In this document: piece after piece, positions 6,095 through 6,244 of the stretch
Layout of the letters: every line of letters starts with the position of its first letter
How positions within the stretch are numbered: position 1 is the first letter of the stretch
Virus record (IMG/VR): IMGVR_UViG_2713896907_000005
Location: 1 to 6,883 of that record
Length of the DNA stretch: 6,883 bases
DNA from: a virus
Taxonomy: Duplodnaviria > Heunggongvirae > Uroviricota > Caudoviricetes
Direction: 5' to 3' (one strand)
Position numbers and translations under genes: made by a program
Notes under the pieces: model-generated
Databases searched by the model: none
What the model was told of the DNA's origin: nothing
Seen by the model: the letters and a program-made list of their open reading frames with translations, nothing else

Positions 6095-6244
6095 ACCATC
6101 AGTCCGTCAAAAACACACCTAACGAATTGTATTTATTGAATAAATATAAATCACACTTATCACATTGCGCAATTCAGCTCCTACACATCCAGACTAGCTC
6201 TGCAAAACTTTAAAAAAATAAATCAATAGTAAAAACATGCACAT

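Follow-up and report, generated by a model that had tools for sequence, protein, structure and literature searches.

The closest described counterpart of the DNA studied here is the spacer between the terminator tImm and the left operators of phage lambda (35652-35824), which follows the last gene of the cI operon and precedes OL3. Its portion from -75 to -105 relative to the pL start reportedly holds the pL UP element together with a proximal IHF site at about -86 (work of Giladi and colleagues from 1996/1998), and a second, more distal IHF site upstream of pL ('L2') was reportedly described by Giladi and colleagues in 1990. UP elements are A/T-rich DNA at about -40 to -60, immediately upstream of the -35 hexamer. 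IHF is reported to stimulate pL (PMC2147009), and an UP element has been described close to OL (PMC3708714, citing Giladi 1998 and Cui 2013). A second point of comparison is offered by the junction linkers of mosaic lambdoid phages, the 'boundary sequences' of Degnan et al. (2007; EF1204xx records), in which a short conserved stretch likewise lies between interchangeable modules.

Our analysis concerned a perfect palindrome upstream of pL in a phage sequence of 6,883 nucleotides (hereafter the window, meaning the whole stretch that was analysed), which comprises an immunity region of the lambda type, shown here in leftward orientation. Its features are given below; the start of pL at a6314 was inferred by analogy with mEp234, whose annotated start lies 7 nt after the -10 hexamer.

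Minus strand: ninB, ren, P, O, cII and cro
3748-4461, plus strand: cI
4548-5126 and 5123-6052, plus strand: two-gene cassette in the rexAB position
6066-6093, plus strand: tImm, an intrinsic terminator with an 8-bp G+C-rich stem, a 6-nt loop and TTTTCTTT (terminator scan)
6111-6138: conserved left block AAACACACCTAACGAATTGTATTTATTG, made up of the left arm of the palindrome and about 20 bp upstream (per-position match)
6120-6132, minus strand: IHF-like core ATACAATTCGTTA (consensus scan)
6124-6152: extended imperfect inverted repeat with 14-nt arms, predicted DNA hairpin of -3 kcal/mol
6130-6146: palindrome TATTTATT-g-AATAAATA
6168-6177: second conserved island CGCAATTCAG (alignment and per-position match)
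6178-6206, plus strand: segment of variable sequence, always C-rich and G-poor
6207-6236: A-tract block ACTTTAAAAAAATAAATCAATAGTAAAAAC, homologous to lambda -75 to -105 (alignment)
6245-6261, 6265-6281 and 6289-6305: OL3, OL2 and OL1, lambda type (alignment to the annotated lambda operators)
6279-6314, plus strand: pL, with -35 TTGACG at 6279-6284 and -10 GATACT at 6302-6307 (promoter scan)
Frame end at 6769, plus strand: N-like antiterminator gene

The spacer is homologous to lambda J02459 35570-35824 (75.5% over 259 nt, query 29-287, E = 1e-38), and ten further phages with unrelated cassettes (mEp234, HK106, CL707, ev099, HK542, HK97, SfI, mEp332, HK544 and PhiR5_2) have a homologous spacer. 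The tImm of the window aligns with the annotated Timm of mEp234, CL707, HK542, mEp332 and HK544, and forms the left edge of a linker common to the lambda family. By its position, by the tImm hairpin and T-run with which it starts and by homology over its full length, the tImm-OL linker of the window is a member of this family. All eleven phages of the alignment share TAAC-AA-TGTATTTATT, and at the three positions in between just one or two phages deviate. Lambda itself carries, at 35744-35763, the unannotated repeat TATTTATT-GAAA-AATAAATA, which has the same 8-bp arms around a 4-nt loop, follows the same terminator and is centred at -171.5 from the pL start, as against -176 in the window. The two alleles are nonetheless only about 75% identical, the loop is 1 nt rather than 4 nt long, and the window lacks the outer pairing TTGTAT/ATACAA of lambda and has a different outer pairing instead. 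The window palindrome thus appears perfect because three loop bases are deleted relative to the lambda-type repeat. On the reading that we prefer, to which we give about an even chance, the palindrome is an inherited allele of the lambda-family linker repeat, its symmetry is incidental, and the left block is a putative distal architectural site for pL. A 3-bp deletion in the loop of a lambda-type TATTTATT-GAAA-AATAAATA would have produced the 'perfect' 17-mer, and the symmetry would be inherited, perhaps made more exact by common mutational events of A/T-rich DNA such as slippage or template switching.

The palindrome reads TATTTATTgAATAAATA at 6130-6146, where the arms TATTTATT and AATAAATA are perfectly complementary over 8 bp around g6138, as the preliminary description had reported, and its centre precedes the inferred pL start by about 176 bp. 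With mismatches allowed, the arms can be followed out to 6124-6152 (GAATTGTATTTATT and AATAAATATAAATC, 12/14 complementary, plus one G.T). The AT-rich noncoding spacer of about 150 bp that had been described between tImm and OL is borne out as well: tImm and OL3 are separated by 151 bp (6094-6244; A 64, C 35, G 13 and T 39 on the plus strand, or 68% A+T), with no ORF of at least 40 aa wholly inside. In dinucleotide shuffles of the 6.9-kb window, scored for mismatch-free inverted repeats whose arms reach 8 bp or more and whose loops do not exceed 6 nt, 0.72 repeats of such quality are expected per shuffle and 53% of the shuffles contain at least one; two were observed, and the palindrome is not significant at the scale of the whole window. 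For the 151-bp spacer taken by itself, one such repeat is seen in about 1% of the shuffles. The second repeat of this quality lies at 3495-3518, inside cro (ATAAACGCT-TCCATC-AGCGTTTAT, 9-bp arms and a 6-nt loop), a repeat that the cro gene of lambda also has.

Related loci were collected by a scan of viral contigs with anchors that exclude the repeat itself (the tImm T-run and GCAATTC) and from phage records, which gave 132 usable loci with 53 distinct spacers. Across the 132 loci the conserved block adjoins 31 clusters of cassette 3' ends and stands beside at least four groups of operator region (lambda type at 80 loci, the phi330/Nil2/E212 type at 38, and two others), and 172-188 bp separate the left arm from the pL start. 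The two-gene cassette (4548-6052) is also found in L036, a phage whose immunity region differs from that of the window; the sequence is 98.6% identical from 4438 onward and is joined at tImm to a spacer allele of the lambda lineage. Since the same cassette occurs there with another spacer allele, the spacer allele moves with the OL side and not with the cassette. Cassette and spacer/operator alleles thus reassort at this linker as modules do at the boundary sequences of Degnan et al. (2007); the annotated boundary sequence of that type, however, lies beyond N and not in the tImm-OL spacer, and the window linker differs further in that it includes functional elements, both tImm and the upstream DNA of pL.

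It had been proposed that the palindrome is a recombination scar marking the junction of the cassette. The 31 cassette ends, the at least four operator types and L036 exclude both a junction scar and a site specific to the cassette; for this cassette, L036 and the homology to lambda already refute the scar. The palindrome does lie near the cassette boundary, and the 933W-type spacers discussed below lose their homology to lambda halfway through the repeat, which would speak for a scar or attachment-type site at the point of cassette insertion. The boundary itself, however, coincides with the 5' edge of the tImm stem (about 6066-6068), some 60 bp before the palindrome, and homology to lambda, as well as to phages whose cassettes are unrelated, sets in there and continues through the palindrome, which is therefore inside sequence common with lambda, itself a carrier of rexAB. 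No second copy of the palindrome occurs within the window. We consider a scar or attachment-type origin extremely improbable.

How far the symmetry is kept among relatives bears on whether it matters. The left arm is nearly fixed, and the variants of the right arm are AATAAATA, AATTAATA, AATTGATA, AACTAATA, AATCAATA and AATAAACA. In the register of the 17-mer, one position is unpaired in 11/20 distinct variants, without compensation there, and the spacing of the half-sites differs by lineage (a loop of 1 nt in the window versus 4 nt in lambda), the 1-nt-loop form being confined, among the 132 loci, to the window and four near-identical loci. Spacers of the 933W immunity type keep tImm and CACATAACCAATTGTATTTATTG and have lost the right arm (…TATTTATTGATGTAACTCGC…); they account for 95 phage records, about 40% of the 239 records with the tImm block, and no inverted repeat is detectable in them. 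In the 933W-type phages L184 (500-560), L185 and L186, the exact centre of the repeat is where lambda homology breaks; some 12 nt, the right arm among them, are missing, and the sequence beyond (TAACTCGCTAAACC…) is related again, so that the repeat has the look of a mosaic or deletion breakpoint. The palindrome is thus absent from otherwise syntenic relatives, which is part of what the preliminary description had named as refuting its proposals. Phages of the Lambda_2E9 type have tImm only and lack the whole conserved block, so the block is dispensable in some contexts. The unrelated spacer of Lambda_2E9 (L187, about 500-520) has a 10-bp perfect palindrome of its own, GCACATGTGC, at a similar distance past the terminator; this is probably a chance occurrence, as about 0.15 are expected per 150 bp by estimate.

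These observations weigh heavily against a dimeric, sequence-specific regulator, whether a host or a cassette protein, that would bind both 8-bp half-sites, as had been suggested from the dyad. In the window the dyad is perfect, and such a repeat turns up in only about 1% of shuffles of the spacer alone. Against this, the half-site spacing is 3 bp off that of lambda (1 versus 4 nt), relatives have a right half-site that has drifted or is missing, cassettes of 31 types and immunities of four types accompany the block, and the same cassette is found without the palindrome in L036. Protein A belongs to DUF6932 and protein B has no Pfam family, with no recognised DNA-binding domain in either. An operator of this kind is very unlikely in our view, and the symmetry of the palindrome is most likely incidental.

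Several other candidate sites were considered and set aside. Consensus sequences of LexA, CRP, ArgR, Fur, Fis, DnaA, Tus/Ter and the TTGC repeats of CII were compared by eye, and none fits or is kept in both lineages. The sequence ACATAACCA resembles the weak half of OL3, as a CI half-site might, but phages with a different immunity conserve the block just as well. The promoter scan of both strands of the window, lambda and mEp234 gave no sigma-70 promoter at the repeat, and a minus-strand promoter built on the invariant ATTGTA (TACAAT) has no usable conserved -35. An UP element, which had been put forward together with DNA bending as a role of the palindrome at pL, is excluded by position, the centre of the palindrome being at -176 and separated from pL by OL2, OL3 and about 100 bp of spacer; of that proposal only bending is retained, as a best guess, and for the left half rather than for the palindrome.

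A different view of the symmetry is obtained when other registers are considered. In the lambda lineage the repeat can be read as TTGTATTTATT-N8-AATAGATACAA, with 11-bp arms (L001 654-689, corresponding to lambda 35736-35771). Over 20 lambda-lineage variants this repeat is 98.2% pairable on the plus strand, allowing G.U; all eight one-sided changes are A-to-G and give U.G on the leftward strand, the T.G position is invariant, and there is one compensatory AU-to-GC change (L107), of which L053 is the intermediate. The lineage of the window has a long repeat in yet another register, the re-registered arms described above (12/14 plus one G.T). Taken together, the two long repeats hint that the symmetry might matter after all. 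They might do so as a functional hairpin, formed either when plus-strand RNA from read-through of tImm folds or when a cruciform is extruded. One possible role would be that of a pause or entry element in a backstop that depends on Rho and shields pL and N from immunity-operon transcription. The DNA hairpin of lambda, at -4.4 kcal/mol with z = -3.9, is in keeping with a functional hairpin, as is the composition of the 150 nt after tImm, which over 65 distinct spacers average A 41%, C 27%, G 8% and T 23% on the plus strand; this G-poor, C-rich composition holds even where the spacer sequence varies. On the other hand, 95 phage records have neither the right arm nor the repeat, the stems are weak and all A-T (-3 to -4.4 kcal/mol, with z = -1.65 in the window), covariation of the 11-bp repeat does not rise above shuffles (56/500), a search of the whole window against Rfam gave no match, and the good intrinsic terminator upstream means that little RNA should reach the region. 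The repeat, with its all-A/T stem, is also not among the terminator-like sites of the terminator scan. We regard a functional hairpin as unlikely.

The composition of the spacer is rut-like, and there is a small chance that it reflects a Rho-dependent backstop to tImm. The fuller proposal, that a selected plus-strand hairpin (with 11-bp arms in the lambda lineage and 14-bp arms in that of the window) and the rut-like spacer together make up an undescribed Rho-dependent insulator backing tImm, is in our estimate unlikely. If it were true, transcription of the immunity operon and of its defence cassettes could not leak into pL and N in a lysogen.

Our preferred reading, that the palindrome is an inherited linker repeat of incidental symmetry, places the constraint in the left half of the repeat. 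When the window was compared position by position with 83 distinct non-window spacers, conservation was highest, apart from tImm, the A-tract and the operators, in 6111-6138 and 6168-6177, and the left block is retained in spacers of the lambda, window and 933W types. Between the window and lambda, 25/28 positions of 6111-6138 match by our own count, compared with an estimated identity of about 60% elsewhere in the spacer, an excess with p ~0.05 by a rough binomial estimate that allows for window choice.

The same pattern could be produced by pure hitch-hiking, in which neither the palindrome nor the left block is functional and a linker of about 110 bp is co-transferred with tImm and pL through repeated homologous recombination between mosaic phages. 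In spacers of the lambda lineage every column between tImm and GATCTCTC is uniformly conserved at 90% or more, and the repeat does not stand out among them; this, the recombination of cassette and spacer alleles at tImm, the phages of the Lambda_2E9 type that manage without the block and the lack of window-wide significance of the palindrome all speak for hitch-hiking. What co-transfer explains less readily is that the left block survives where the neighbouring spacer has diverged or been deleted, as in spacers of the 933W type and in those of the window type, whose overall identity is about 75%, and that it stands out at 25/28 against the estimated 60%, with the rough p ~0.05 given above. We consider hitch-hiking a possible explanation, although a rather unlikely one.

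If the left block is under constraint, as the preferred reading holds, the protein most readily suggested is IHF, whose core consensus is WATCARNNNNTTR (PMC2709558). The minus-strand sequence ATACAATTCGTTA (6120-6132) matches this consensus at 11/13 positions, with CAA-N4-TTA kept and the mismatches at consensus positions 2-3. Matches with at most two mismatches occur 4-5 times per 270 bp, or about once per 60 bp, in A/T-rich spacer DNA of this kind, so the core match by itself counts for next to nothing. All four N positions of the core vary among relatives (CCAA, CGAA, CCAT, CTCA, TCGA, CCTA), and the TAA is invariant. This pattern of conservation is no more than suggestive, as the argument from it is post hoc, with roughly p = 0.02 by our own Fisher-type count. 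On the minus strand the 14 bases of the 5' flank of the core (6133-6146) are those of the palindrome and all but one are A/T, which resembles the IHF sites of the lambda attP H' kind, with their core and A/T-rich 5' element. The IHF-like core of the window differs in position from the characterised IHF site upstream of pL, lying at about -185, twice as far from the promoter; two IHF-like matches in the A-tract region are centred at -87 and -91. The literature consulted on IHF, pL and the UP element describes no site or footprint at the position of the left block. We tentatively propose the left block as a candidate distal architectural DNA-bending site of the IHF type for pL, a proposal based on the sequence and one that we rate clearly below even.

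According to this model, the constrained part of the repeat would be its left arm and about 20 bp upstream (6111-6138), some 180 bp upstream of pL, which we infer may be bound by IHF or a similar DNA-bending protein, possibly through the minus-strand core ATACAATTCGTTA with the A/T-rich flank supplied by the palindrome. The linker as a whole ends the transcript of the cI operon and its cassette at tImm, supplies the upstream DNA of pL and offers a homologous flank for the exchange of cassettes. Read as an inherited piece of the lambda linker, the palindrome is uninformative about the two-gene cassette beside it. The block of about 28 bp roughly 180 bp upstream of pL is conserved across immunities and cassettes and is unannotated in lambda; this block, or the excess of C over G in the spacer, could point to unstudied control of pL, PRM or read-through in lambda.

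Some further observations concern the wider distribution of the linker and its neighbours. A scan of contigs from genome assemblies for more divergent relatives brought no new lineages, only exact copies of lambda and chance matches. Fifteen assemblies (L134, L139, L145, L148-L150, L153, L160, L161, L163, L164, L167, L170, L176 and L178) have a spacer identical to that of lambda, nearly all of them from taxa that lambda does not infect (Paenibacillus, Kitasatospora, Desulfovibrio, Capnocytophaga and others) and often on very short contigs; these are most likely contamination with lambda DNA. The tImm of lambda (L001 599-620) is terminator-like on the opposite strand too, with the tail ATTCTTGTTC, and no opposite-strand terminator was scored for tImm in the window or mEp234. 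Any bidirectionality, which is scored in lambda only, thus depends on the 3' end of the cassette, and on the same grounds a reverse-direction small RNA ending at tImm was rejected. As for the cassette itself, protein A (192 aa) has the DUF6932 domain (Pfam E = 2e-26) and weakly matches PDC-M63A, a PADLOC candidate, no Pfam family is matched by protein B (309 aa), and the full cassette together with the spacer is present in only 8/5426 complete E. coli genomes.
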